NCBI GenBank assembly: GCA_035531715.1
Contig: DATKSI010000031.1
Location: 9,673 to 73,672, forward strand
DNA length: 64,000 bases
Origin: Candidatus Micrarchaeaceae archaeon
GTDB lineage: Bacteria; Chloroflexota; Dormibacteria; Aeolococcales; Bog-877
Direction of reading: 5' to 3'
The notes beneath the pieces were generated by a model. It made no database searches. It worked only from the letters and a program-made list of their open reading frames with translations, and had not been told where the DNA came from. Of the stretch, positions 3,291-60,444 are shown in pieces (positions within the stretch are counted from its first letter, which is position 1; each line of letters opens with the position of its first letter). A program made the position numbers and the translations under genes.

Positions 3291-3329
3291 GCAGTCAGCT
3301 GGGGTGGGTGGGTGGCCGGGCATCGCTGC

Positions 3330-3776
3330 TCACCTCTCGTACACCACGTAGGAGGTGCGGTGAGCGACCCGGTCGTAGAGCGAGCGGGCGGGGGCGTTGA
3401 ACTCCTGGGTCTCCCAGTAGGTGCTCGCGGCGCCGCGGCGGTCGGCCTCCTCGAAGGCAGACTCGAGCAGCTCCCGGGCAACCCCTTTCCCACGGGCCTG
3501 GGTGGCGACGAACAGGTCCTCCACGTAGCAGCGGTCGGAGCTGGACCAGGTTGTGGGGTGGAACACCAGATGGACGAACCCCAGCAAGCGATGGCTTTCG
3601 TCCTCAGCCACCAGTCCCACCACCGGACCGGTGCCGGCGGCGAGCCGGGAGAAGGTATCCCAGGTCACCCGGTCATCGATCTCCGCCCGATAGAAGTGCA
3701 GGTAGGCCTCCCAGAGCTGGGTCCAGGACCTTCGGTCGCTCTCGGAAAGTGGTCTCACCATGTCGGGAACCTCCAT
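3330..3776 (-). CDS. GNAT family N-acetyltransferase
   Basis: 148 aa with an acetyl-CoA binding motif …VATQARGKGVARELLE… An alternative start is at MVRPLSE (3761). Confidence 0.8.
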   Translation of the reverse strand: MEVPDMVRPLSESDRRSWTQLWEAYLHFYRAEIDDRVTWDTFSRLAAGTGPVVGLVAEDESHRLLGFVHLVFHPTTWSSSDRCYVEDLFVATQARGKGVARELLESAFEEADRRGAASTYWETQEFNAPARSLYDRVAHRTSYVVYER

Positions 3777-4209
3777 TGGCTCAGAAGTGCAGCAGTCGCC
3801 ACTTGTGGATCAGGGGCGCCTGGTCCGCCGGGAGAGTCGGCCCGCCGGAGTTGGGAAGGTAATGCCGCTCGGCTGGGGGAAGACGGGATGAAGGCCACCA
3901 TCAGTGTCGGGCGGGGACCATGCTGGGCCGCCCACCTTGCCACGGCTGGCGGGGTACCCGGATCTCGGTGAGTTCGAAGCTCCAAGGTTCAACGCCGGCC
4001 CGGTAACCGTCGACCCAACCATCGACGCCATGCGAGAAAGCTTTGGCGAAGAGGGAACATTTCGACCCGCCCAGCCGCTTGCCCCTGACCTCCCGTGAGG
4101 ATCGGAGCGGGATGAAGCGACCGCCTCGGTCGCCCCGCTCCACAAGCGTGGGCATTCCTCGCCAGAGGAGCGATCTCGCGGCTGGCCACTATTCATCACA
4201 ATTGGCTAC

Positions 4210-4431
4210 GTGGTATTGACCGGATTTGGGGCCGCCGCGGTGACCTTCATGGTGGTGATGTACGCCCTGGAGCGGCGCCACCCCGGATTCGTCCTGGCCT
4301 TCGCCGGCGGCTGCCTGCTGTCGAGCACTTACGGCTTCCTGGCTGGCGCCTGGCCGTTCGGCGTGGTCGAGATCGTCTGGGCCGGGATCGCGCTCCGGCG
4401 GTACTTCGGGGCGAGGGCGAGCGCTCGCTAG
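4210..4431 (+). CDS. small hypothetical membrane protein (two predicted TM helices)
   Basis: 73-aa hydrophobic ORF (AAAVTFMVVMYAL…FVLAFAGGCLLSSTYGFLAGAW) with codon usage like the neighbouring genes. No recognisable family. Confidence 0.4.
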   Translation: MVLTGFGAAAVTFMVVMYALERRHPGFVLAFAGGCLLSSTYGFLAGAWPFGVVEIVWAGIALRRYFGARASAR

Positions 4432-4492
4432 TCGCCCGGCGCCGATTCCGGGTGCGGAGCTCGCTTCAGCAAGGCTAGCCGTCCGCGACTCC

Positions 4493-5473
4493 TCATTCAG
4501 CCGCCCTAGTGGAGCGCGGCGGCGATGGAGCGGTCCCAGCTGCGGGTTCCGGGCTCAGGACGCGGGTCCGCTGCAGGCTGCGGTCGAGCAGGCTGGCCAG
4601 CGAGTAGAGGACCTCTAGGTGGGGGACCTGGATCTCCATGATCTGGGCCAGCTCCACCAAGGCTCCCACGGTGGCCCCCAGCTCAAGCGGCCGCCCCGAT
4701 TCGACGTCCTGGAGCATGGAGGTCTTGTGGCCGCCGACTCGCCCAGCGCCCTGAATGCGTTTCTCGATTCCGACCGGGAGCTCGAGCCCGAGCTCGCGCC
4801 CGATCAACTCCACCTCCTCCATCACCGCTCTGACCAAAGGCACCGCTCCGTCGGAGGAGGTGATCTCCTCCAGGGTGGCTCGAGACAGGGCCGAGATGGG
4901 GTTGAAGCTGGCGTTTCCCAGCAGCTTGAGCCAGAGCTCGGGCCGGATTCGCTGCGGCACGGGCGCCTTGAAGCCGGCGCGACGCAGCGCCGCCGAGACC
5001 TCCGCGGTCCGAGCCGAGGTTCCTCCGGTGGGCTCGCCCAGGCTGATGCGATTCCCTTCCAGGTGCTCGACCACCCCCCACTCCGAGATCCGGGCGGCCG
5101 GATAGACGATGCAGCCGACCACCCGACGGGCGTCGATGTTCTGGGAGATGACTCCGCCCGGGTCCACCGCCTGGAGCGTGGTCCCCTCCCAGGTTCCCCC
5201 GAACCCGGAGAAGAACCACCAGGGGATCCCGTTCTGGGCGCTGAACACGCTGGTCTGGGGGCCGAGCGCCGCTCCCAAACGTTCCGCCAAAGGAGGCAGG
5301 CTGTGCGCCTTCACCGTGAGGAACACCGCATCGGCGGAGCCGATCGGCGTCAGCTCTTCGGTGCACTCCGGGTGCACTGTGAAGTCGCCGGAGATCCCGG
5401 TCACCCGCAGCCCCTGGCTGCGCAGGGCCGCCAGCTGTGGGCCCCGGGCGATCAGGGTGACCTCCTCTCCCAC
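4493..5473 (-). CDS. panE: 2-dehydropantoate 2-reductase (ketopantoate reductase, ApbA/PanE family). The true N-terminus lies upstream of the first canonical start.
   Basis: KPR-like C-terminal domain. The Rossmann motif LKFVVLGAGATGGLLGAHLAR is encoded in-frame upstream of the first ATG/GTG/TTG (GTG at 5473), with no canonical start back to the in-frame stop at 5702. A CTG at 5534-5536 overlaps the TGA stop of the upstream ligase gene in a CTGA arrangement. Confidence 0.75.
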   Translation of the reverse strand: MGEEVTLIARGPQLAALRSQGLRVTGISGDFTVHPECTEELTPIGSADAVFLTVKAHSLPPLAERLGAALGPQTSVFSAQNGIPWWFFSGFGGTWEGTTLQAVDPGGVISQNIDARRVVGCIVYPAARISEWGVVEHLEGNRISLGEPTGGTSARTAEVSAALRRAGFKAPVPQRIRPELWLKLLGNASFNPISALSRATLEEITSSDGAVPLVRAVMEEVELIGRELGLELPVGIEKRIQGAGRVGGHKTSMLQDVESGRPLELGATVGALVELAQIMEIQVPHLEVLYSLASLLDRSLQRTRVLSPEPAAGTAPSPPRSTRAAE

Positions 5474-52301: not shown

Positions 52302-52486
52302 TCGGCATCCCCTACCGCCAGCCGATCGGGGGTGACCGGGTTTCGGTCGCGGGTCCTCCCCAACGCAGCCGATCGTCGGAGTGACCTCGGTCAGGAGGCC
52401 GACCGGCGTCTCCTGACTCCGTTAGGGGCCAACTTGACCCGCCGCTGGCCGCGCGGCCGTCCGGGGACAGACTCGAGGCGAACCGG

Positions 52487-52957
52487 TCAGGGCACCTGGC
52501 AGCTGGAGCAAAGGCCGAGTTGATCGAAACGATGTTCGGTGACTTGGTATCCCTGCCGGTCGATCACCGCGCGGGCGGCCGCCTCCAACGCTCGCTCCAG
52601 CTGAGCCGAGGCGGGCAAATCGTCAACCCGTCCACAGCGGGTGCAGACCAGATGGTGATGGTGACCGCACAGCTCCTCGGCCAGCTCGTAGCGGCCGTGG
52701 TCCTCGGTCCCCGGCAGGCGATAGGCCACCCCGACCTCGGCCAGGATCGTCAGGTTGCGGTAGATCGTGCTCTGCGGCAGGCGCGGAGTCGCGGTGACGA
52801 TCTCGGGAATGGTCAAGGGGCGAGCGGCCGCCGCGAGGGTCTCCACCAGAAGCCGGCGGCGCGCCGTGTAGTGCTGATCCACCTGGGCCAGTCGCGCCCG
52901 AACCGCCTCGTGGATCGAAGTCGAAAGTGCGGCCCGCGCCTCGCCAACATTGCTCAT
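52487..52957 (-). CDS. Fur family transcriptional regulator (Zur/Fur-like), last gene of the metal-uptake operon
   Basis: ATG at 52957 (MSNVGEARAA…). Winged helix, HHHxxC…CxxC metal sites (CGHHHHLVCTRCGRV…CSSCQ). Confidence 0.85.
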   Translation of the reverse strand: MSNVGEARAALSTSIHEAVRARLAQVDQHYTARRRLLVETLAAAARPLTIPEIVTATPRLPQSTIYRNLTILAEVGVAYRLPGTEDHGRYELAEELCGHHHHLVCTRCGRVDDLPASAQLERALEAAARAVIDRQGYQVTEHRFDQLGLCSSCQVP

Positions 52958-53093
52958 TTGATCCGGCACCGTAGCGCCGACCCATGGACCTGCCCGCTTC
53001 CTGACTGTCGGAATCGTGGGGACCACGGGGCCAACCTAGCAGTTGCCACCGGAGCGGGGTCCGGGACAAGTCGGCCAACCGGCCGGGCCAACT

Positions 53094-53921
53094 TCATCCG
53101 ACCGGACCTTCCGCCAGCTGGCGGCGGTTGGGCCCCCGTAGGTGGTAGTAGTCCCAGCCCCGAGCCAGCCCGTAGGAACCGGCGCCGAGGGCCCCGACAA
53201 AAAATCCGATCGGCCAAGCGCAGACATAGGCGAGTGCGATGGCCAGCCAGATGATGATGAGCGCGATACCGACGGCGAGCCCCATGGCGATCCCGGGGCG
53301 GGCGGTGAGTGAGCGGGCGGCCGCGGCCGGCGCGACCATCAGGCTGAACATCAGGAACGCCCCCACGATGGGGACGGTCATGGTGGTAGCCAGCGCCACC
53401 AGGAGAACGAAGCTGAGCTCCATGCGGCTGGCGCGAACCCCCCGGGCCTCACCCGCCTCGGGCATCACTGCGCTCAGGGTGAGGGGCCGGAAGAGCAGGA
53501 GGGTGGCGATCACACAGACCAATCCCAAGCCCAAAATGGGCGGAAGCTCGGCGCGGTTCACCCCCACCACATCGCCGAAGAGAAGAGAGAAAATCTCGGC
53601 GGCGTATTCCCGGCTCAGGCTGAGAAAGAGGGAGCCCAGGCCGAGCATCACCACCAGCGCCAAGGCGGTGACCACGTCTTGCCGTCCGCGCCGGCTGAGC
53701 CAGCTGATCCCGAGTGCGCCCCCGACCGCGAAGGTCCCCAGGCCGAGCAGGGTGCTCAGGCCGAGCAGACTGGCGGCGGCGGCGCCCGCGAAGGCGCCGT
53801 TCGGAACCGCATGAGCGATGAAGGCTGCGCCCCGCAGCACGATGAAAAAACCCAGTACGCCGGCGACCACCGCTACCACGGTGGCGGCCAGCCAGGTGTT
53901 GAGCATGAACCCGGTGAACAC
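53094..53921 (-). CDS. metal ABC transporter permease (ZnuB/MntB family), second permease
   Basis: Multi-TM. A GTG at 53921 lies 6 nt after the upstream permease stop. The track ORF extends to 53987. Confidence 0.8.
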   Translation of the reverse strand: MFTGFMLNTWLAATVVAVVAGVLGFFIVLRGAAFIAHAVPNGAFAGAAAASLLGLSTLLGLGTFAVGGALGISWLSRRGRQDVVTALALVVMLGLGSLFLSLSREYAAEIFSLLFGDVVGVNRAELPPILGLGLVCVIATLLLFRPLTLSAVMPEAGEARGVRASRMELSFVLLVALATTMTVPIVGAFLMFSLMVAPAAAARSLTARPGIAMGLAVGIALIIIWLAIALAYVCAWPIGFFVGALGAGSYGLARGWDYYHLRGPNRRQLAEGPVG

Positions 53922-53926
53922 TTCGG

Positions 53927-54829
53927 CTAGGGTCCCGCGGGCCGCGCGTCGATGATCGCGCTCCGGGACGCCCACTTCGATGCCCACCTGCGCGCGGGAA
54001 GCTGAAGCAGGAGGTACAGGGTGAAGATCAGGGCCACTACAAAAAAGCTCACCGGCCAGCCACGGCCGCCCGGCGGCCAGTAGAAGCTGTCGTAGGCGAG
54101 CACGATGCTCACCCAGGTCACGGCCACGCCGATCAGGGCCGCCAGCAGGAGCGCCAGCCCGGGGTGCTTGGTCAGCCGCAGCGCACAGGCCGCCGGACCG
54201 ATCAACAAGGCGGTGCTGAGCACCGCCCCAATGGTCATCGCCGAGAGGGACACCGCGAGCGCCAACGAGACCAGATAGCCGATTCCCACCAAACGCACCG
54301 GAACGGCTCGCGCCACGGCCATATCCGAGCTCAACGAGCTGAAGAGGAGCATCCGGTACAAGATCAACACGGTGCCCAGAGAGACGACGCCGAGGCCCAA
54401 AATGATCGGCACCAGCCCCCCGTCGATGGTGAAGATCGAGCCGAAGAGGATGGTCATGGACGCCCCGGAGGTGTTGCTCGAGGTGGTGTCCAGATAGAGA
54501 AAGAGCGCCGCCAGTCCAAGCCCCGCCCCGAGCACTATGCCGGTCGCCAAATCTCGGCTCCGCGCCCGCCCGGGTCCGATCAGGTCGATCGTGCCGGCGG
54601 CCACCGCTGCGATCACCACGAATCCCCAGAGCTGGCTCACCCCGAGTAGAAATGCGCCCGACCCGCCGGCAGTGCCCAGGTCGGCCAGCGCGTGGCCGGA
54701 AAACGACTGACCCCGAACCACGGTGAACACCCCGACCACACCGGACACCACCGCCACGACCGTCCCCACGATCAGCGCCACCTGGACCGGGGAGCTCTGA
54801 AAAAGGCCGGGGCCGAAGATCGAACCCAT
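53927..54829 (-). CDS. metal ABC transporter permease (ZnuB/MntB family)
   Basis: Multi-TM. The start at MGSIFGPG (54829) is preferred over the track start at 54877. Confidence 0.8.
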   Translation of the reverse strand: MGSIFGPGLFQSSPVQVALIVGTVVAVVSGVVGVFTVVRGQSFSGHALADLGTAGGSGAFLLGVSQLWGFVVIAAVAAGTIDLIGPGRARSRDLATGIVLGAGLGLAALFLYLDTTSSNTSGASMTILFGSIFTIDGGLVPIILGLGVVSLGTVLILYRMLLFSSLSSDMAVARAVPVRLVGIGYLVSLALAVSLSAMTIGAVLSTALLIGPAACALRLTKHPGLALLLAALIGVAVTWVSIVLAYDSFYWPPGGRGWPVSFFVVALIFTLYLLLQLPARRWASKWASRSAIIDARPAGP

Positions 54830-54842
54830 CAGGTCTCCGACC

Positions 54843-55691
54843 TCAGACCAGGCCTGGATCGGCGGTCGCATGAGCATGCTCGTGATCCGCGGCAGAGGTG
54901 TCGTCGGAACCGGAGATCACCAGTACCCGGTCGCGCAATCGGATCACGTCGACCTGGCGGCCGTAGAGCCGACTCAATACCTCTGGCTGGACCACCTCTT
55001 CCGTGGTCCCACTGGCCGCCCGGCCCGCCGCCACGTAGACGATTCGGTCCATGACCGGGAGTAAAGGGTTCATGTCATGGGCCGAGATCAACACTGCGAT
55101 GCGCTGCTCCCGGGCGATCCGGGAGAGCAGCTCCACGACTTCGTGCTCGCTGCGAATGTCCAGGTTGATCAGGGGCTCGTCGAGGAGCAACAGCTGGGGT
55201 CGGCTGATCAAGGCGTGGGCGATGAGAATCCGCCGCTGCTCGCCACCGGACAGCCGACCGACCCGCTTGTCGGCGAAGCTGGAGGCATCGACCGCCTCGA
55301 TCATCTCGTCAATCAGGCGGCGCCGCTGGCGCGAGGGGAAGGGGATCCCGATGCGGTGTCCGTCCAGCCCCAGGCCAACGACGTCTCGCGCTCGCAGCGG
55401 CATGTCCGGATCCAGCACCACGGTCTGCGGGACATATCCGATCGCCGGATCCGGCCCCGACCGGGCGCCGGGCCGGATCCAGATGCGGCCGGCGCTCGCT
55501 CGCTGGAGACCCAGGATCACCCGGAAGATGGTGGTTTTGCCGGCTCCATTGGACCCGATCAGCCCCGTCATCTCGCCCTCCCGGATGGCGAAGCTCACAT
55601 CACGCAGCACCTGGCGACCGCCTAGCCAGACGGAGACCCCCTCCAGCTTGAGGACCTGGTCAGCGTCGACTCGAGCGAGCTCCTCTTCCAC
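54843..55691 (-). CDS. metal ABC transporter ATP-binding protein (ZnuC type)
   Basis: Walker A GSNGAGKTT, signature LSGGEQRRILIA, Walker B LLLDEP. Confidence 0.85.
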   Translation of the reverse strand: MEEELARVDADQVLKLEGVSVWLGGRQVLRDVSFAIREGEMTGLIGSNGAGKTTIFRVILGLQRASAGRIWIRPGARSGPDPAIGYVPQTVVLDPDMPLRARDVVGLGLDGHRIGIPFPSRQRRRLIDEMIEAVDASSFADKRVGRLSGGEQRRILIAHALISRPQLLLLDEPLINLDIRSEHEVVELLSRIAREQRIAVLISAHDMNPLLPVMDRIVYVAAGRAASGTTEEVVQPEVLSRLYGRQVDVIRLRDRVLVISGSDDTSAADHEHAHATADPGLV

Positions 55692-56671
55692 TACAGCCGG
55701 GTGGTCGACTCTCGGTCAGCCAGAGCTCGGTAGAGCGCCCGAGCCTCGGCCGTCATCCAGGTCTGATAGTCGTAACCCGGTGTGGGCATGGTCTCGTACA
55801 GGGCCACAACCGGGATACCCGCTCGTCGGGCGAGCGTGAGGAAGGAGTTGGTCAGCGTGTCGGTGACCTGCTGGTTGTAGAGAAAAACCCGGACCCGATG
55901 CTGACTGAGCAGCCCGTCCTGGAGGCTCACCTCCTGAGGCGCCGGGTCGACTCCGTTCATGATGTCGGCCTGCAGCGTCCAGGGGGTGCGATTGTTGGCA
56001 CCTGCCGCCTGGAGCAGATAATCCCCCACCGGCTCGGAGGTGGCGACCGCCGCCCCGGGGAATTTGGACTTGATTTGGGCGATCGCCTGATACCAGGGAG
56101 TCAGGGACGCGTCGAATCTCCGAGCCCGGGTCAAGAAGTAGCCGAGATGGGTTGGCGCCCGCTTCCCCAAGTCCTGGGCCACCGCCTTGGCGACGGCCAC
56201 CATCGCCGACGGCCGGTACCACAGGTGAGGGTTGGCCGTCTTCGAGGGCAGTTTGAGCAGCCGCTGGACATCGATCACCAGACGGAGGTGATTCGGTGAG
56301 GCAGCCTCGATCTTGTTCATGAAGGTGTCGTAGCCGAGCCCATTCTGAACTACCAGATCAGCTGAACTGATCGTCGCGGCCGCGGCGGGGCTGGCCTCGA
56401 AGGTATGCGGATCGGTGTTGGGGTTGCTGATCATGGCGGAGACCTGGACATACTGGCCTCCGATCTGACCGATCACGTTGGCGTACTGATTCTCGGCGCC
56501 CACCGCGACGATCTTTTTCGCCCCCACGGCAGCCGATACTCCCATCGCTCCACTCACCAAGACGGTAATCGCGGCCGTAACCAGCAGGCCGGCGTGCGCC
56601 CGCCGCGTCCGCCTCCGCCACCCCTCGTCGGCACCCGTCAGCGGCTCCTTCCGATCGGTCTTCCGCTTCAC
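55691..56671 (-). CDS. metal ABC transporter substrate-binding protein (ZnuA/TroA-like cluster A-I)
   Basis: SBP fold with an N-terminal signal/TM region and metal-ligand His/Asp segments (…NPNTDPHTFEASP…). First gene of the operon. A Fur-type box lies just upstream. Confidence 0.8.
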   Translation of the reverse strand: MKRKTDRKEPLTGADEGWRRRTRRAHAGLLVTAAITVLVSGAMGVSAAVGAKKIVAVGAENQYANVIGQIGGQYVQVSAMISNPNTDPHTFEASPAAAATISSADLVVQNGLGYDTFMNKIEAASPNHLRLVIDVQRLLKLPSKTANPHLWYRPSAMVAVAKAVAQDLGKRAPTHLGYFLTRARRFDASLTPWYQAIAQIKSKFPGAAVATSEPVGDYLLQAAGANNRTPWTLQADIMNGVDPAPQEVSLQDGLLSQHRVRVFLYNQQVTDTLTNSFLTLARRAGIPVVALYETMPTPGYDYQTWMTAEARALYRALADRESTTRL

Positions 56672-56885: not shown

Positions 56886-57578
56886 TCATCGGGGCGGGAT
56901 CAGCCAGCGAAAGTACTCCCGGTCACCCAGGAGTTCGAGGCGGCGCCAGAGGACTGGATTGCCGTTCGCCTGGCTGGCGTGGCAGGCGCTGGCGCGGCGC
57001 TGGGCGAGTCGGCCGACCTGCGCCACCAGGTCGAGCTGGTGCTCATCCCGACCGACGAAGCTGGCGCCGTATTCGCGGTTGAGGGTAAGCGCGACCGTCC
57101 GGGGGATCGCCCAGGCGAGGACCGCAATCCCAGCCCGCTCAGCGTGGGCGACGGCTGCCTCCGTCGCCCGCTGGTGGTCGGGGTGCCCCGTGATCCCTCC
57201 TTCATCGAAGGTGAGCAGAAGATCGGCGCCGACCAGCGTCGCGAATTCCCCGACCTGAGCCGTGAGCTGCTCCAGCGGCCGGTCAGCGAGGGCGCCGTCA
57301 GGATGGTCAAGGAGCTTGAGGTGACTGACGCGCAGTTCCTTGGCGGCGGCGTTGAGTTCGGCCCGGCGCACCGATCGCAGATCTAGCGCGGACCCAAGTT
57401 GGGACGCCTCGCCATGGGTGAAGACCAGCACAGAGGTCGACGATCCTCGGTCGACGAAAGTGTCCAGGGCAGCGCCGAGTCCGAAGCTCTCGTCATCAGG
57501 GTGGGCGCAGACAGCAAGGACCGTGGCCGTGCTCGGAAGTGGGCCAAGTCGCGATTCCGCTCCGGTCCGGTCTTTCAC
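56886..57578 (-). CDS. PIG-L family deacetylase (LmbE-like; MshB/Mca-type)
   Basis: N-terminal AHPDDE motif (VLAVCAHPDDESFG) and HPDH motif (GITGHPDHQRA). Confidence 0.8.
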   Translation of the reverse strand: MKDRTGAESRLGPLPSTATVLAVCAHPDDESFGLGAALDTFVDRGSSTSVLVFTHGEASQLGSALDLRSVRRAELNAAAKELRVSHLKLLDHPDGALADRPLEQLTAQVGEFATLVGADLLLTFDEGGITGHPDHQRATEAAVAHAERAGIAVLAWAIPRTVALTLNREYGASFVGRDEHQLDLVAQVGRLAQRRASACHASQANGNPVLWRRLELLGDREYFRWLIPPR

Positions 57579-57764
57579 CTCAGCCGCGTGGGTCTGCCGG
57601 GAGGCGACGCGAAAATGGCCACAGGCACCTCACTTTTATAGTCTGACCCGGCACCGGCGCAGATTCGCTGCGGGGGTGATCGGTCGCCTCACGAGAGGTG
57701 GCACCCATGTCACGAGACCGCGGACCCGGGTTGGTCGGCTGGTCCCTACCCGTCCCCGGTCGAG

Positions 57765-57995
57765 GTGATGCACGAGCTGGCCCCCGGCCGGGCGCTGGGC
57801 CTCGCCGGTGGGGTGGGACACAATGCCGGGCGGTTGGACGAGCGGGGCTGGGACCCGGTGCACGTGGACCTTTCACCGGTCGGCCAGGCCAGGGAACGAC
57901 TCCCGGCGAAAAGGCTGGGGATCGAAGTGAGTTGGGTGGCGCCGCAAGTCGACACTGCCGCGGGTATGTGGTCGCCCCGGATGCCCTGGGCCTAG
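57765..57995 (+). pseudogene. fragment of a class I SAM-dependent methyltransferase (degenerate motif I region)
   Basis: Reads …ALGLAGGVGHNAGRLDERGWDPVHVDLSPVGQARERLPAKRLGIEVSWVAPQVD…, resembling the xLDLGCGxGRNAxxLAxxGxxVxAVDxS… motif I to post-I region. No intact surrounding ORF. Confidence 0.35.
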
Positions 57996-58009: not shown

Positions 58010-58435
58010 TTACTGCTTCCCCTCACCCCGGGAGACCACGGCATCCCGCACCCGCACGAGCCGCTCGGCAGCGGTAGCGGCCAACTCAGCCAGCATCGAT
58101 CCAGTCATGAGCGCCCGGGGATCCGCGATCGATAGCTGGGTGCGGTCGCCGTCGGCCTCGAGCACCACATTGCAGGGAAGGACCAGACTTGCCGACGGAT
58201 CGATCTCCAGAGCTTGGTGGGCGAGATCGGCATTGCAGGCGCCCAGGATCTTGAGCGGTGCTCGATCGACTCCGAGCTTGGCCCTGAAGATGGCGGCCAC
58301 GTCAATCTCCGTCAGGACGGCAAAGCCTTGTTCCGCCAGCGCCGCGCGCACGGCAGCCTCGGCCGCTTCCATCGGGATTCCGATCGTTGCTTCGATTCCA
58401 TCCACGTCCTGCACCTCCTCGGGCAGATAGCCCAC
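58010..58435 (-). CDS. DUF302 domain-containing protein
   Basis: 141 aa (…FAVLTEIDVAAIFRAKLGVD…ILGACNADLAHQALEIDPSASLVLPCNVVL…). Immediately downstream of the CsoR-like gene. Confidence 0.8.
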   Translation of the reverse strand: MGYLPEEVQDVDGIEATIGIPMEAAEAAVRAALAEQGFAVLTEIDVAAIFRAKLGVDRAPLKILGACNADLAHQALEIDPSASLVLPCNVVLEADGDRTQLSIADPRALMTGSMLAELAATAAERLVRVRDAVVSRGEGKQ

Positions 58436-58707
58436 TTAGGCGAGCTTCATCAGCATCCGCTGCACCCCGTCGATCGCATATCCCTCGGCCTCCGCCTGCT
58501 CGGGATGCTCGACGCAGTAGGTGAGTCCGGCGGCGACCAGTCGCAGCCCGGCCTGTTCTAGCGCTCTGGTGGCGGCCGAGAGTTGGTTCACCACGTCGCG
58601 GCACTCGCGGCCATCATCGAGCATCCGCTCGACCGCCTGAACCTGACCCGAAGCGCGGTGCAGTCGCTTCCGGACATCCTCGATCACCTGCTCGGGTAGT
58701 TGCATGG
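58436..58707 (-). CDS. CsoR/RcnR/CstR family metal- or persulfide-sensing transcriptional repressor
   Basis: ATG at 58707 with a GGAGGG RBS (MQLPEQVIEDVRKRLHRASGQVQAVERMLDDGRECRDVVNQLSAATRALEQAGLRLVAAGLTYCVEHPE…). Conserved C…C-x-x-H sensing residues. The track ORF is spuriously extended to 59242. Confidence 0.8.
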
Positions 58708-58816
58708 TCGCACCCTCCGTCTGATTGGCTCGCTCGGCGGCCGATCCCGGGCGAGGTCGTCGAAACTTTCGTCGAGTCGCTTTCGATGCCCCGGCGGACT
58801 CGGCCTCGGCAACAGG

Positions 58817-58830
58817 TACCCCATAGGGTA
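58817..58830. promoter_or_regulatory. CsoR-type operator palindrome, copy 1 (TACCCCATAGGGTA)
   Basis: Lies in the divergent intergenic region between the csoR-like gene and the rhodanese gene. Matches the GC-rich TACCCC…GGGGTA CsoR operator class. Confidence 0.55.
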
Positions 58831-58849
58831 TATTCTCTCGGACGAATAA

Positions 58850-58863
58850 TACCTTATGGGGTA
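58850..58863. promoter_or_regulatory. CsoR-type operator palindrome, copy 2 (TACCTTATGGGGTA, an inverted copy of copy 1)
   Basis: Lies 20 nt from copy 1. Its reverse complement TACCCCATAAGGTA differs from copy 1 at one position. Confidence 0.55.
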
Positions 58864-58900
58864 TCCGGACGCGGGAGCGGAAACACACTAGGAGGATGAC

Positions 58901-59260
58901 ATGAGCTGGTTGCAGAAGGCCCTGGGAGGCGGCCGCGGAGTCGGCCCACAGGAGGCACACGATCTGGTGCAGGCGGGGGCCGTCTTGCTGGATGTTCGGG
59001 AGGATTCCGAGTGGCGGGCCGGTCATGCTCCGGGCGCTCGCCACATCCGTCTGGGAGATCTCGACCGCGGGCTCGCTGCCCTGCCCCGCGACCGGGAAGT
59101 GGTTGTTGTATGTCGATCGGGCGGCCGCTCCGCCAGAGCGACCGCGATCCTCACCCGGGCCGGAGTCGAGGCGGTGAACTTGAACGGAGGCATGCGCGCC
59201 TGGGCGGCTGCCGGCCTGGCCGTGACCAGCGGAAATGCCCAACCGGGGCGGGTTGTCTGA
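58901..59260 (+). CDS. rhodanese-like domain protein (sulfurtransferase)
   Basis: Active-site loop VVVCRSGGRSARA. AGGAGG RBS. Confidence 0.85.
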   Translation: MSWLQKALGGGRGVGPQEAHDLVQAGAVLLDVREDSEWRAGHAPGARHIRLGDLDRGLAALPRDREVVVVCRSGGRSARATAILTRAGVEAVNLNGGMRAWAAAGLAVTSGNAQPGRVV

Positions 59261-59309
59261 GGCGTCCCGGGCGCTTCTCGGCTTGCGGGTGCAAAACGAT
59301 ACCCCCTAG

Positions 59310-59323
59310 GGTATACTTGGTGG
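59310..59323. promoter_or_regulatory. CsoR-type operator palindrome, copy 3 (TACCCCCTAGGGTA), upstream of thioredoxin
   Basis: Same 14-mer family, 40 nt upstream of the trx start codon. Confidence 0.55.
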
Positions 59324-59363
59324 GGGTCGGCAGTCCGGGTAAGCAGACAGGAGAATTCTGAAC

Positions 59364-59726
59364 ATGGCTACGGTCAACCTGACGAAGGCGAACTTCGAAG
59401 ATGTGGTCAGCGGCGGCACGGTGCTGGTGGACTTTTGGGCGTCATGGTGTGGGCCGTGCCGAATGTTCGCACCGGTCTTTGAGGCGTCTTCCGAGGAGCA
59501 CGCCGATCTGGTCTTCGCCAAGGTCGATACCGAGGCCGAGACGGAGCTGGCCAGAGAGTTCGGGATCATGTCTATCCCCACGTTGATGGTCTTTCGGGAC
59601 CAGGTGCTGATCTACTCCCAGCCCGGGGCACTGCCCCGAGAGTCACTCGAGGAGCTAATCGGAAAGGTTCAGGCCCTGGACATGGCTGAGGTGCAGCGGC
59701 AGATCGTCGCCCAGGAGGCGCGCTAA
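59364..59726 (+). CDS. trxA: thioredoxin
   Basis: WCGPC active site (DFWASWCGPCRMFAP). 120 aa. Confidence 0.9.
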   Translation: MATVNLTKANFEDVVSGGTVLVDFWASWCGPCRMFAPVFEASSEEHADLVFAKVDTEAETELAREFGIMSIPTLMVFRDQVLIYSQPGALPRESLEELIGKVQALDMAEVQRQIVAQEAR

Positions 59727-59772: not shown

Positions 59773-60444
59773 TCAACCTGGCCAGCGAGCGACGCCCCTG
59801 GTAAACCACGACCATGGGCGGGGCCCCTTGGCATATCGATGCTCGATTTGCTCGATCCGGAATCCCGCCTCTTCGATGAGCTTCGGCATGTCCCGGGTCA
59901 GGTGGCACCCGTCGGCAAGTCTGCCCTGGATTGGATCGAGGCGGCGCTGCCAGGCAGCCACTCTCGGGTCCGGTGCCAGGCCATGTTCGAGGAAGTGAAA
60001 GTGACCACCCGGACGAAGTACCCGCCCCAATTCCGCCAGGACTCGATGGGCGTCGGGCACGGTGCACAGGGTGAACGTGGACAGGGCAGAGTCGCAGCTA
60101 CCGGCGTCGAGGTCAAGCGCCTGGGCGTCGGCCCCGATGTACTTGACCGCCAAGCGTGAGGCGGTGATCCGGCGGCCGGCCAGGTGGCGCGCCACCCGGG
60201 AGGGGTCCACGGCAAGGACGACATCAACCGTGGCTGGGTAATGCTCGAGGTTGAGCCCGGAGCCGAAGCCAATCTCAACCACTCGGCCGTGCAGCCCGGC
60301 GGTTACCCCGGGCCGCCAGCTATCTATCGAGCGGATGCCGCAGGCTCGCTCCACGAGCCTGGGGACAACCTGCTCCCGATAGAACCCCACCCCGGTACCG
60401 TAGCGCCAGTTAGGGCTGGGTGTTCGGCCGCCCGCCGCGCGCAA
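59773..60444 (-). CDS. class I SAM-dependent methyltransferase
   Basis: Motif I VVEIGFGSGLNLEHY, post-I VLAVDPS. Confidence 0.75.
   Translation of the reverse strand: MRAAGGRTPSPNWRYGTGVGFYREQVVPRLVERACGIRSIDSWRPGVTAGLHGRVVEIGFGSGLNLEHYPATVDVVLAVDPSRVARHLAGRRITASRLAVKYIGADAQALDLDAGSCDSALSTFTLCTVPDAHRVLAELGRVLRPGGHFHFLEHGLAPDPRVAAWQRRLDPIQGRLADGCHLTRDMPKLIEEAGFRIEQIEHRYAKGPRPWSWFTRGVARWPG

Follow-up and report, generated by a model that had tools for sequence, protein, structure and literature searches.

Which signal does a CsoR-family repressor answer to when the genes beside it encode a rhodanese, a thioredoxin and a DUF302 protein? The question is raised by a locus in a 64-kb stretch of contig DATKSI010000031.1 (hereafter the window), in which a regulator gene of the CsoR/RcnR family (58436 to 58705, minus strand; 89 amino acids) forms an operon with a DUF302 gene (58010 to 58435, minus strand; an open reading frame (ORF) of 141 amino acids). 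The regulator gene is separated by a divergent gap of 195 bp from a single-domain rhodanese gene (58901 to 59260, plus strand; 119 amino acids, active-site loop CRSGGRS), which is followed after 103 bp by a thioredoxin gene, trx (59364 to 59726, plus strand; 120 amino acids, active site WCGPC). We propose, with a probability of about 0.7, that this cluster is a thiol-based, non-copper CsoR-family repressor circuit of the kind represented by CstR in Firmicutes and by ScCsoR in Streptomyces, which responds to sulfane sulfur and has a reductive output.

An earlier reading of this DNA, made from the sequence alone (the sequence-only reading), had named the same four genes, and Pfam bore out all four assignments; the regulator is 89 amino acids long rather than the 90 first given. 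All four genes have good Shine-Dalgarno sequences, with GGAGGG placed 8 nt before the ATG of the regulator gene. The DUF302 ORF begins directly after the stop codon of the regulator gene on the same strand, and its likelier start is the GTG at 58405, since GAGGAGG precedes it and the resulting 131 amino acids fit the homologs, which are mostly about 127 amino acids long; in public contigs the DUF302 protein is also called as 131 amino acids.

The regulator matched PF02583 over residues 9 to 84 (E 1.8e-19; 70.3 bits against a cutoff of 22.8), and its matches in the PDB were CsoR, CstR, FrmR and InrS, so it belongs to the CsoR/RcnR superfamily (PF02583, DUF156). In alignments to Geobacillus CsoR (4M1P), Streptomyces lividans CsoR (4ADZ) and Streptococcus pneumoniae CstR (SpCstR; 7MQ1), Cys35 and Cys64 occupy both sensing positions, and Gly60 stands at the position of the copper-ligand histidine. 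The protein carries the x-C-x-C pattern of persulfide sensors, with two cysteines about 29 residues apart and no histidine at the Y position, and it lacks the Cu(I) triad x-C-H-C, in which a histidine lies four residues before the second cysteine; this agrees with the earlier description of the regulator as CstR-like rather than copper-sensing. Loss of the Y-position histidine accounts for the copper insensitivity of CstR (PMC8643695), and the spacing of 29 residues between Cys35 and Cys64 is that of C37/C66 in ScCsoR (PMC7533328) and of C39/C68 in TTHA1953 of Thermus thermophilus (PMC10318464). All 84 copies in 80 related genomes have Cys35, Gly60 and Cys64, and in a diverse alignment with representatives down to 35% identity the second cysteine was invariant and the first nearly so.

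ScCsoR (SCO0620) of Streptomyces coelicolor recognises ATACCn6GGTAT, its release from the DNA is triggered by hydrogen polysulfide (HSnH), and Cys37 and Cys66 are required; of its sites, two lie in the persulfide-dioxygenase promoter and one lies between the divergent csoR and rhodanese genes (Lu et al. 2020, PMC7533328). Together with Rv1766 of Mycobacterium tuberculosis (Mtb), it falls in cluster 3 of a sequence similarity network, a group of 3,175 x-C-x-C proteins regarded as candidate persulfide sensors of actinomycetes (Fakhoury et al. 2021, PMC8643695); for Rv1766/Rv1767 only co-expression data were found in the literature. With phmmer at a common database size, the window's regulator scored 56-71 bits against five actinomycete relatives linked to persulfide dioxygenase or rhodanese genes, including 66-71 bits against the regulators of such circuits in S. 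chartreusis and Pseudonocardia autotrophica, compared to 46.8 bits against Geobacillus Cu-CsoR, 39.1 against S. lividans Cu-CsoR, 37.4 against SpCstR and 19.7 against Mtb CsoR. The sequence-only reading had held that a full Cu(I) triad together with grouping with the copper-sensing CsoRs would refute it; the triad is absent, and the regulator scored higher against the actinomycete regulators (56-71 bits) than against the copper CsoRs (19.7-46.8 bits). The regulator and its near relatives form a distinct Acidimicrobiia group marked by a GLTYC-x-x-P...GY motif, with 65-81% identity within the group. Other members of the superfamily were tried and rejected: RcnR and InrS, which have His3 and an H-C-H-H or H-C-H-C pattern, for the absence of His3 (the N-terminus is MQLP, with Leu at position 3) and of histidine at positions 60 and 64, and FrmR, which combines Pro2 with Cys35, for the absence of Pro2 (position 2 is Gln or Glu in the regulator family). 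The NCBIfam scores for FrmR and RcnR were about 28 bits against cutoffs of 133-138.

The five actinomycete loci came from a search of PLSDB plasmid proteins, which found regulator relatives about 40% identical in cultured actinomycetes. All five regulators carry the x-C-x-C pattern, and four of the five loci carry the operator described below. In P. autotrophica, a DUF302 gene is divergent from a regulator, metallo-beta-lactamase (MBL), rhodanese, TauE, rhodanese series, and the operator is present. In Streptomyces sp. NA03103, which also has the operator, a trxA-regulator pair follows a rhodanese-MBL-rhodanese cluster of the same strand at a distance of about 1 kb. The S. chartreusis locus, with a rhodanese gene divergent from csoR and with tauE, a further rhodanese gene and the persulfide dioxygenase gene pdo, follows the SCO0618-0621 layout and has two sites at pdo. 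On a Mycobacterium lentiflavum plasmid (L087), genes for DsbA and a flavin adenine dinucleotide oxidoreductase are divergent from regulator-MmpS-RND, and Tsukamurella has a DUF302-regulator operon in a locus (L085) with no strict operator site.

The sites themselves were then located in the window. A search with TACCCCNTAGGGTA, allowing at most two mismatches, gave four matches, which represent three distinct sites; 0.35 matches were expected, and none of 100 dinucleotide shuffles reached four. Site 1 (TACCCCATAGGGTA; 58817 to 58830) and site 2 (TACCTTATGGGGTA; 58850 to 58863) lie in the gap between the regulator start at 58705 (minus strand) and the rhodanese start at 58901, 33 bp or about three helical turns apart, and site 3 (TACCCCCTAGGGTA; 59300 to 59313) lies 50 nt upstream of the trx start. 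The three near-identical 14-bp sites reported earlier are therefore present, and their distribution, two in the divergent region and one upstream of trx, agrees with our coordinates; the third begins at 59300 and not at 59310. The sites are pseudo-palindromes rather than perfect 14-mers: inverted repeats of 5+5 or 4+4 nt (TACCC/GGGTA) flank a centre of 4-6 nt that is not palindromic. Nowhere else in the window does the strict core TACC-N6-GGTA occur, and all three occurrences are in promoter regions of the cluster. Outside the cluster region, ten matches to the 8-base core with one mismatch were found, one of which lies at 58685 inside the regulator gene; none of them has the extended consensus, and we treated them as chance.

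Each operator appears to overlap a -10 box, as judged from weak consensus matches. Site 1 overlaps TATATT (58829-58834), the -10-like element of a putative rhodanese promoter found by promoter scan, with the -35 element TCGGCA at 58806 and a 17-nt spacer, and would lie at about +9 to +22 of the putative divergent regulator promoter. Site 2 overlaps the -10-like TATTAT on the minus strand (58851-58846), assigned to the regulator operon by reading the sequence, and would lie at about +10 to +23 of the rhodanese promoter. Site 3 overlaps the -10-like TATACT (59312-59317) and abuts the -35-like TTGGTG. We also observed that, upstream of the trx genes of relatives (L008, L016, L019, L024, L030, L045, L046, L048, L057 and L060), GGTTGA(A/C) is conserved 4-6 nt downstream of the operator and GGAA is conserved before the site; the window has CTTGGTG in place of GGTTGA(A/C).

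Related loci were collected by a genome scan with a 10-sequence alignment as the query and one genome per species, which gave 80 loci (696 kb in total) with regulators 65-81% identical, nearly all labelled as Acidimicrobiales, Acidimicrobiia or unclassified Actinomycetota metagenome-assembled genomes (MAGs); bog, palsa and SPRUCE MAGs account for many of the hits. In these loci TACC-N6-GGTA occurred 157 times, compared to a mean of 6.0 and a maximum of 12 in 100 shuffles (about 26-fold enrichment), and at least one site was found in 76 of the 80 loci. Conservation extends beyond the search pattern, with A before TACC in 85%, C at position 5 in 90% and T after GGTA in 85% of the sites, which shows that the motif is real and not an artefact of pattern matching. 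The consensus in the relatives is ATACCC(c)nn(g)GGGTAT. A site lies within 250 bp upstream of 40 of 76 regulator genes, mostly 19-90 bp away. Paired sites are spaced by 21-26 bp (9 pairs) or, most commonly, by 31-35 bp (15 pairs), that is, by two or three helical turns, and the 33 bp of the window falls in the larger class.

We next assigned targets by taking the nearest ORF downstream of each site (a motif-anchored ORF search), clustering the products and annotating representatives with Pfam; some spurious antisense ORFs (clusters C6, C7 and C14 and many singletons) were ignored. The most frequent operator-linked products were rhodaneses or rhodanese-MBL fusions with the architecture of persulfide dioxygenase-rhodanese proteins (43 genes in 39 loci), followed by the regulator itself (37), thioredoxin (20), MMPL transporters (20), TPMT/TehB-like S-adenosylmethionine (SAM) methyltransferases (9), TauE sulfite exporters (7), PIG-L proteins (4) and OsmC (2). 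Site-to-trx assignments numbered 23, which cover 20 trx genes in 20 related loci and the trx gene of the window. No sulfide:quinone oxidoreductase (SQR) was seen among the operator-linked genes of the regulator subfamily. The sequence-only reading had reported no copper ATPase, which holds more widely: neither the window nor any of the 80 related loci contains an HMA/CopZ motif, and although a P-type ATPase lies within 5 kb in 3 of the 80 loci, the CPC copper-pump motif was found in none. The sequence-only reading would have been refuted by sites at copA/copZ-type genes only or by a lack of enrichment; the motif scan of related loci places the enriched operator at rhodanese/dioxygenase, thioredoxin, TauE, MMPL and regulator genes, and never at copA/copZ.

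The genes of the window's cluster recur around this regulator in several arrangements. DUF302 lies directly downstream of the regulator gene in 13 loci and thioredoxin directly upstream in 8, trx-DUF302 operons stand behind a site in L030, L045, L048, L057 and L060, and the order trx-csoR-DUF302 is found in L019, L024, L036 and L071. In L046, a rhodanese gene is divergent from trx-csoR-DUF302 with two sites between them. Since the four gene types recur in shuffled orders while the operator is kept, functional coupling rather than chance adjacency is indicated.

Several further observations concern the wider set of operator-linked genes. MMPL transporters are among the most frequent of these and often stand behind two or three phased sites (20 loci: L012, L022, L031, L035, L037, L039, L041, L043, L044, L050, L055, L056, L061-L063, L068, L069, L071, L072 and L082); in the literature cited here, no mention of an MMPL transporter under a CstR-like regulator was seen. 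By eye, a gene of L056 divergent from the regulator (3291-4739, minus strand) looks like a multicopper oxidase or nitrite reductase, and a gene of L033 (8109-8465, minus strand) looks like an AhpD-like carboxymuconolactone decarboxylase with a CxxC motif. Each occurs once, and these single neighbours may be chance or lineage-specific recruits. In addition, many Acidimicrobiales genomes carry at least two regulator paralogs, 62-81% identical to the window protein, with indistinguishable operators; L006 and L007, and likewise L011 and L027, each come from one MAG, and two copies lie within 10 kb in L011, L019, L041 and L077. This raises the question of whether cross-talk between such paralogs is avoided or used.

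The other products of the cluster were compared with protein families and solved structures. The rhodanese (PF00581, E 1.9e-20) is nearest to rhodanese domains of enzymes that detoxify sulfide. Its closest solved relatives are domains fused to persulfide dioxygenase (3TP9; BpPRF, 5VE3/5VE4), together with 6MXV, a tandem rhodanese, and CoA-persulfide/CoA-disulfide reductases; its match to GlpE is weak (45 bits against an NCBIfam cutoff of 102, and 32 bits to 1GMX). The thioredoxin (PF00085, E 3.6e-26) scored 104.5 bits with TIGR01068, over the equivalog cutoff of 96.8, and has a C-terminal extension of about 15 residues that is common to the operator-linked orthologs, which are 57-73% identical to it. 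The DUF302 protein (PF03625, E 2.7e-19) is TT1751-like, sharing about 45% identity with T. thermophilus TT1751 (1J3M), and its homologs all keep Cys67 and Cys88. The association of DUF302 with sulfur oxidation is broad, as DUF302 genes belong to the sqr operon in Synechocystis (PMC5061849) and to sox clusters in Acidithiobacillia and in Sulfitobacter (PMC5037610, PMC11034169).

From these data we infer the following mechanism. The reduced regulator, as tetramers, would occupy the three ATACCC-N4-GGGTAT-type operators. Sites 1 and 2 would each cover the -10 box of one promoter and lie just downstream of the start of the other, so that together they would silence the rhodanese gene and the regulator-DUF302 operon, with the regulator repressing its own operon, and site 3 would block the trx promoter. 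A rise in sulfane sulfur (persulfides or polysulfides) would link Cys35 of one subunit to Cys64' of its neighbour through a di-, tri- or tetrasulfide, and the cross-linked repressor would leave the DNA and allow the cluster genes to be expressed. The rhodanese would then load sulfane sulfur on its active-site cysteine, and thioredoxin would reduce the rhodanese persulfide with release of H2S and would also reduce protein persulfides. E. coli GlpE, a small single-domain rhodanese, uses thioredoxin as its sulfur acceptor, and this pair is a precedent for the reduction of a rhodanese persulfide by thioredoxin; the regulation of GlpE is unrelated. The DUF302 protein, with its two invariant cysteines, may be an accessory in the same pathway. 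Relatives have dioxygenase, rhodanese and TauE genes under the operator, and among such detoxification genes the window has just the rhodanese; with persulfide dioxygenase and sulfite exporter both absent from the locus, the sulfane sulfur is probably disposed of by reduction. A more specific proposal, which we offer tentatively and consider doubtful, is that rhodanese, thioredoxin and DUF302 form a self-contained, dioxygenase-independent route for the reductive removal of sulfane sulfur, in which DUF302 would be the dedicated part so far lacking and would use its two cysteines to carry or bind persulfide, polysulfide or elemental sulfur in an SRPBCC-like pocket.

Several points weigh against a sulfane-sulfur circuit. 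The regulator comes from an uncultured MAG, is only about 40% identical to the ortholog in the ScCsoR circuit and is no closer to a bona fide CstR (37 bits) than to Geobacillus Cu-CsoR (47 bits). The window lacks persulfide dioxygenase, SQR and TauE, the characteristic effectors of sulfide detoxification, which makes the output less diagnostic of reactive sulfur than in Streptomyces or Staphylococcus, and general disulfide or electrophile stress would account for the thioredoxin target just as well. Other oxidants, too, react in vitro with dithiol proteins of the CsoR family (TTHA1953, PMC10318464; CstR, PMC8643695). The promoter positions come from weak consensus matches, just one of which passed the promoter scan, and the resemblance of the GGTTGA of relatives to a -35 box suggests that the operator may stand just upstream of the trx promoter rather than over its -10 box. 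Finally, many genomes have at least two paralogs that share the same operator, so another paralog could sit on these sites.

Among the alternatives, the one that survives best is a general sensor of thiol oxidation or electrophiles (disulfide stress, peroxide, quinones, nitroxyl, tellurite or selenite) that is not specific for sulfane sulfur, in which the two cysteines would form a disulfide or an adduct and derepress a repair set centred on thioredoxin. Such a sensor would fit the locus, whose targets are thioredoxin, DUF302 and a small rhodanese and include neither dioxygenase nor exporter, and it would also fit the TPMT/TehB-like methyltransferase, OsmC and carboxymuconolactone-decarboxylase-like protein in the regulon of the family. 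TTHA1953 loses DNA binding on oxidation by H2O2/Cu(II) (PMC10318464), and CstRs react with tetrathionate in vitro, yet in cells CstRs are specific for reactive sulfur (PMC8643695). In addition, the nearest characterised relative answers to polysulfide (PMC7533328), and the rhodanese-MBL fusions that are the commonest operator-linked genes, together with TauE, are a hallmark of sulfide and sulfane-sulfur detoxification. We consider a general thiol sensor an unlikely but live alternative. It is far less probable that the sites serve, or are shared with, a paralogous CsoR-family regulator elsewhere in the genome, so that the local regulator is not the main controller of the rhodanese and trx genes. 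Several related MAGs do hold two or more paralogs with indistinguishable operators; however, the sites of the window lie in the regulator's own divergent promoter, which is the usual signature of a local autoregulated repressor, the same placement directly upstream is seen for 40 of 76 regulator genes, and no second copy of the regulator lies within the 64-kb window. A copper-sensing CsoR, which Cu(I) would release from targets that shield thiols from copper stress, is largely refuted and next to untenable. In its favour, Cu-CsoRs of Geobacillus and Streptomyces have operators of this class, a G/C-tract pseudo-palindrome flanked by TA (PMC7533328, PMC3902906), Geobacillus Cu-CsoR scores best among the solved structures (46.8 bits), and the best NCBIfam match is RicR (45 bits, far under the cutoff of 175). 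Against it, glycine replaces the ligand histidine throughout the family, and loss of this histidine makes CstR unresponsive to copper (PMC8643695). Neither the window nor the 5 kb on each side in the 80 loci shows copA/copZ, an HMA motif or a CPC ATPase, and the targets of the relatives are dioxygenase, rhodanese and TauE genes.

The surroundings of the cluster may retain traces of a larger operator-linked set. Between the DUF302 and PIG-L genes lies a truncated relic of a TPMT/TehB-like methyltransferase gene (57693 to 57995, plus strand), which in tblastn was 32% identical over 118 amino acids (E 1e-11) to the operator-controlled methyltransferase cluster of the relatives; the relic ends at an in-frame stop (57996) and its SAM motif is degraded (GLAGGVGHN for DLACGEGRN), which suggests that the locus once had a larger regulon that has since been pared down. 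The adjacent PIG-L/LmbE-family deacetylase gene (56886-57578, minus strand) is 59% identical to the operator-preceded PIG-L genes of L012, L016, L017 and L020; the PIG-L family includes enzymes of the mycothiol pathway, and a tie to a low-molecular-weight thiol is possible. An operator was looked for before the PIG-L gene of the window and before the methyltransferase gene at 59773-60444, and none was found. The neighbouring genes (the PIG-L deacetylase, a znuA/ABC/zur cluster, a class I methyltransferase, a ClC channel and a penicillin-binding protein) are housekeeping genes unrelated to the cluster. Directly past PIG-L, a zinc-uptake cluster (about 52400-56671, minus strand) encodes a Fur-family regulator, two ABC-3 permeases, an ABC ATPase and ZnuA; it is syntenic in public contigs with an identical regulator and appears unrelated to the circuit.

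The source of the window is most likely an uncultured member of the Acidimicrobiales, as judged from the loci with related regulators. The identical regulator protein is present in public MAG contigs (P0001 and P0271 are identical to the window's regulator and DUF302 protein), and the NCBI label "Candidatus Micrarchaeaceae archaeon" on it is probably an error of binning, labelling or taxonomy, because the close relatives are all Acidimicrobiales and the contig encodes bacterial peptidoglycan synthases. Similarly mislabelled-looking relatives are L063 ("Methanoregulaceae archaeon") and L046 ("Acidobacteriota"). If our reading is correct, the thiol-based CstR/ScCsoR-type branch of CsoR proteins extends into uncultured soil and peat Acidimicrobiales. 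The operator model for that branch is well supported by the 157 sites and their helical-phase pairing, and the Acidimicrobiales regulon is a mosaic in which thioredoxin, DUF302, MMPL transporters and TPMT/TehB-like methyltransferases stand beside the expected dioxygenase, rhodanese and TauE. DUF302, for which structures have been solved, is the main lead, perhaps along with MMPL transporters and the TPMT-like methyltransferase, for proteins that handle reactive sulfur; its role is testable because it is linked to the sensor in an operon, has two invariant cysteines and occurs with sox and sqr genes. Should DUF302 prove to be a sulfur carrier, this would be the first function for a widespread domain that is also found in sox clusters and cyanobacterial sqr operons.

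Among known systems, TTHA1953 resembles the window's regulator as a dithiol CsoR-family repressor (C39, C68) with an inverted repeat of the TACC/GGTA type, and it controls sulfur metabolism, its targets including a thioredoxin (SoxW) and a methyltransferase (PMC10318464). It differs in its operator spacing (ATACC-TTGG-TAT...) and in that its targets belong to a distant Sox system rather than to neighbouring genes, with no link to DUF302 reported. CstR of Staphylococcus aureus, Enterococcus faecalis and Streptococcus mitis/pneumoniae shares the x-C-x-C pair and the loss of the copper-ligand histidine, and its operator core is near-identical (ATACCCTTATGGGGTAT at S. mitis cst versus ATACCTTATGGGGTAT at site 2 of the window) (PMC8643695); single-domain rhodaneses are controlled in both systems. 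In contrast, the regulator scored only 37 bits against SpCstR (7MQ1), the two come from different phyla with presumably different low-molecular-weight thiols, and the partners of CstR are CstA/CstB/SQR or CoA-persulfide reductase, whereas those in the window are thioredoxin and DUF302.

The closest likeness is to the actinomycete systems. The window shares with the ScCsoR circuit a PF02583 regulator with two cysteines 29 residues apart and no ligand histidine, a 16-bp ATACC-N6-GGTAT operator, a regulator gene divergent from a rhodanese gene with the operator between them, and paired operators at some promoters; in S. chartreusis, whose locus has the SCO0618-0621 layout, the regulator shares 40% identity with that of the window (66 bits). 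The window's locus differs in having no persulfide dioxygenase or TauE and in having thioredoxin and DUF302 as partners. An Arthrobacter plasmid "SUL module" combines a CsoR regulator, two rhodaneses, a sulfur dioxygenase, TauE, an MFS transporter and DUF302 (Romaniuk et al. 2018, PMC6305408), and this module and the plasmid loci of Pseudonocardia, Tsukamurella and Streptomyces resemble the window in joining a CsoR-family regulator to rhodaneses and DUF302, including trxA-csoR and DUF302-csoR operons. SUL-type modules, which are described by annotation only and for which neither operator nor mechanism is reported, differ from it in their sulfur dioxygenase, TauE and MFS transporter. The statement of the sequence-only reading that such an arrangement is not a textbook one was overstated, as the csoR/rhodanese layout, a module of CsoR with DUF302 and control of thioredoxin by a CsoR-family protein are all already published. 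Taken together, the comparisons indicate that the locus is a minimal example of the known actinomycete ScCsoR/CstR-type circuit in an uncultured lineage, and that thioredoxin and DUF302 are recurrent members of its regulon with precedents in cultured actinomycetes, partly in print.

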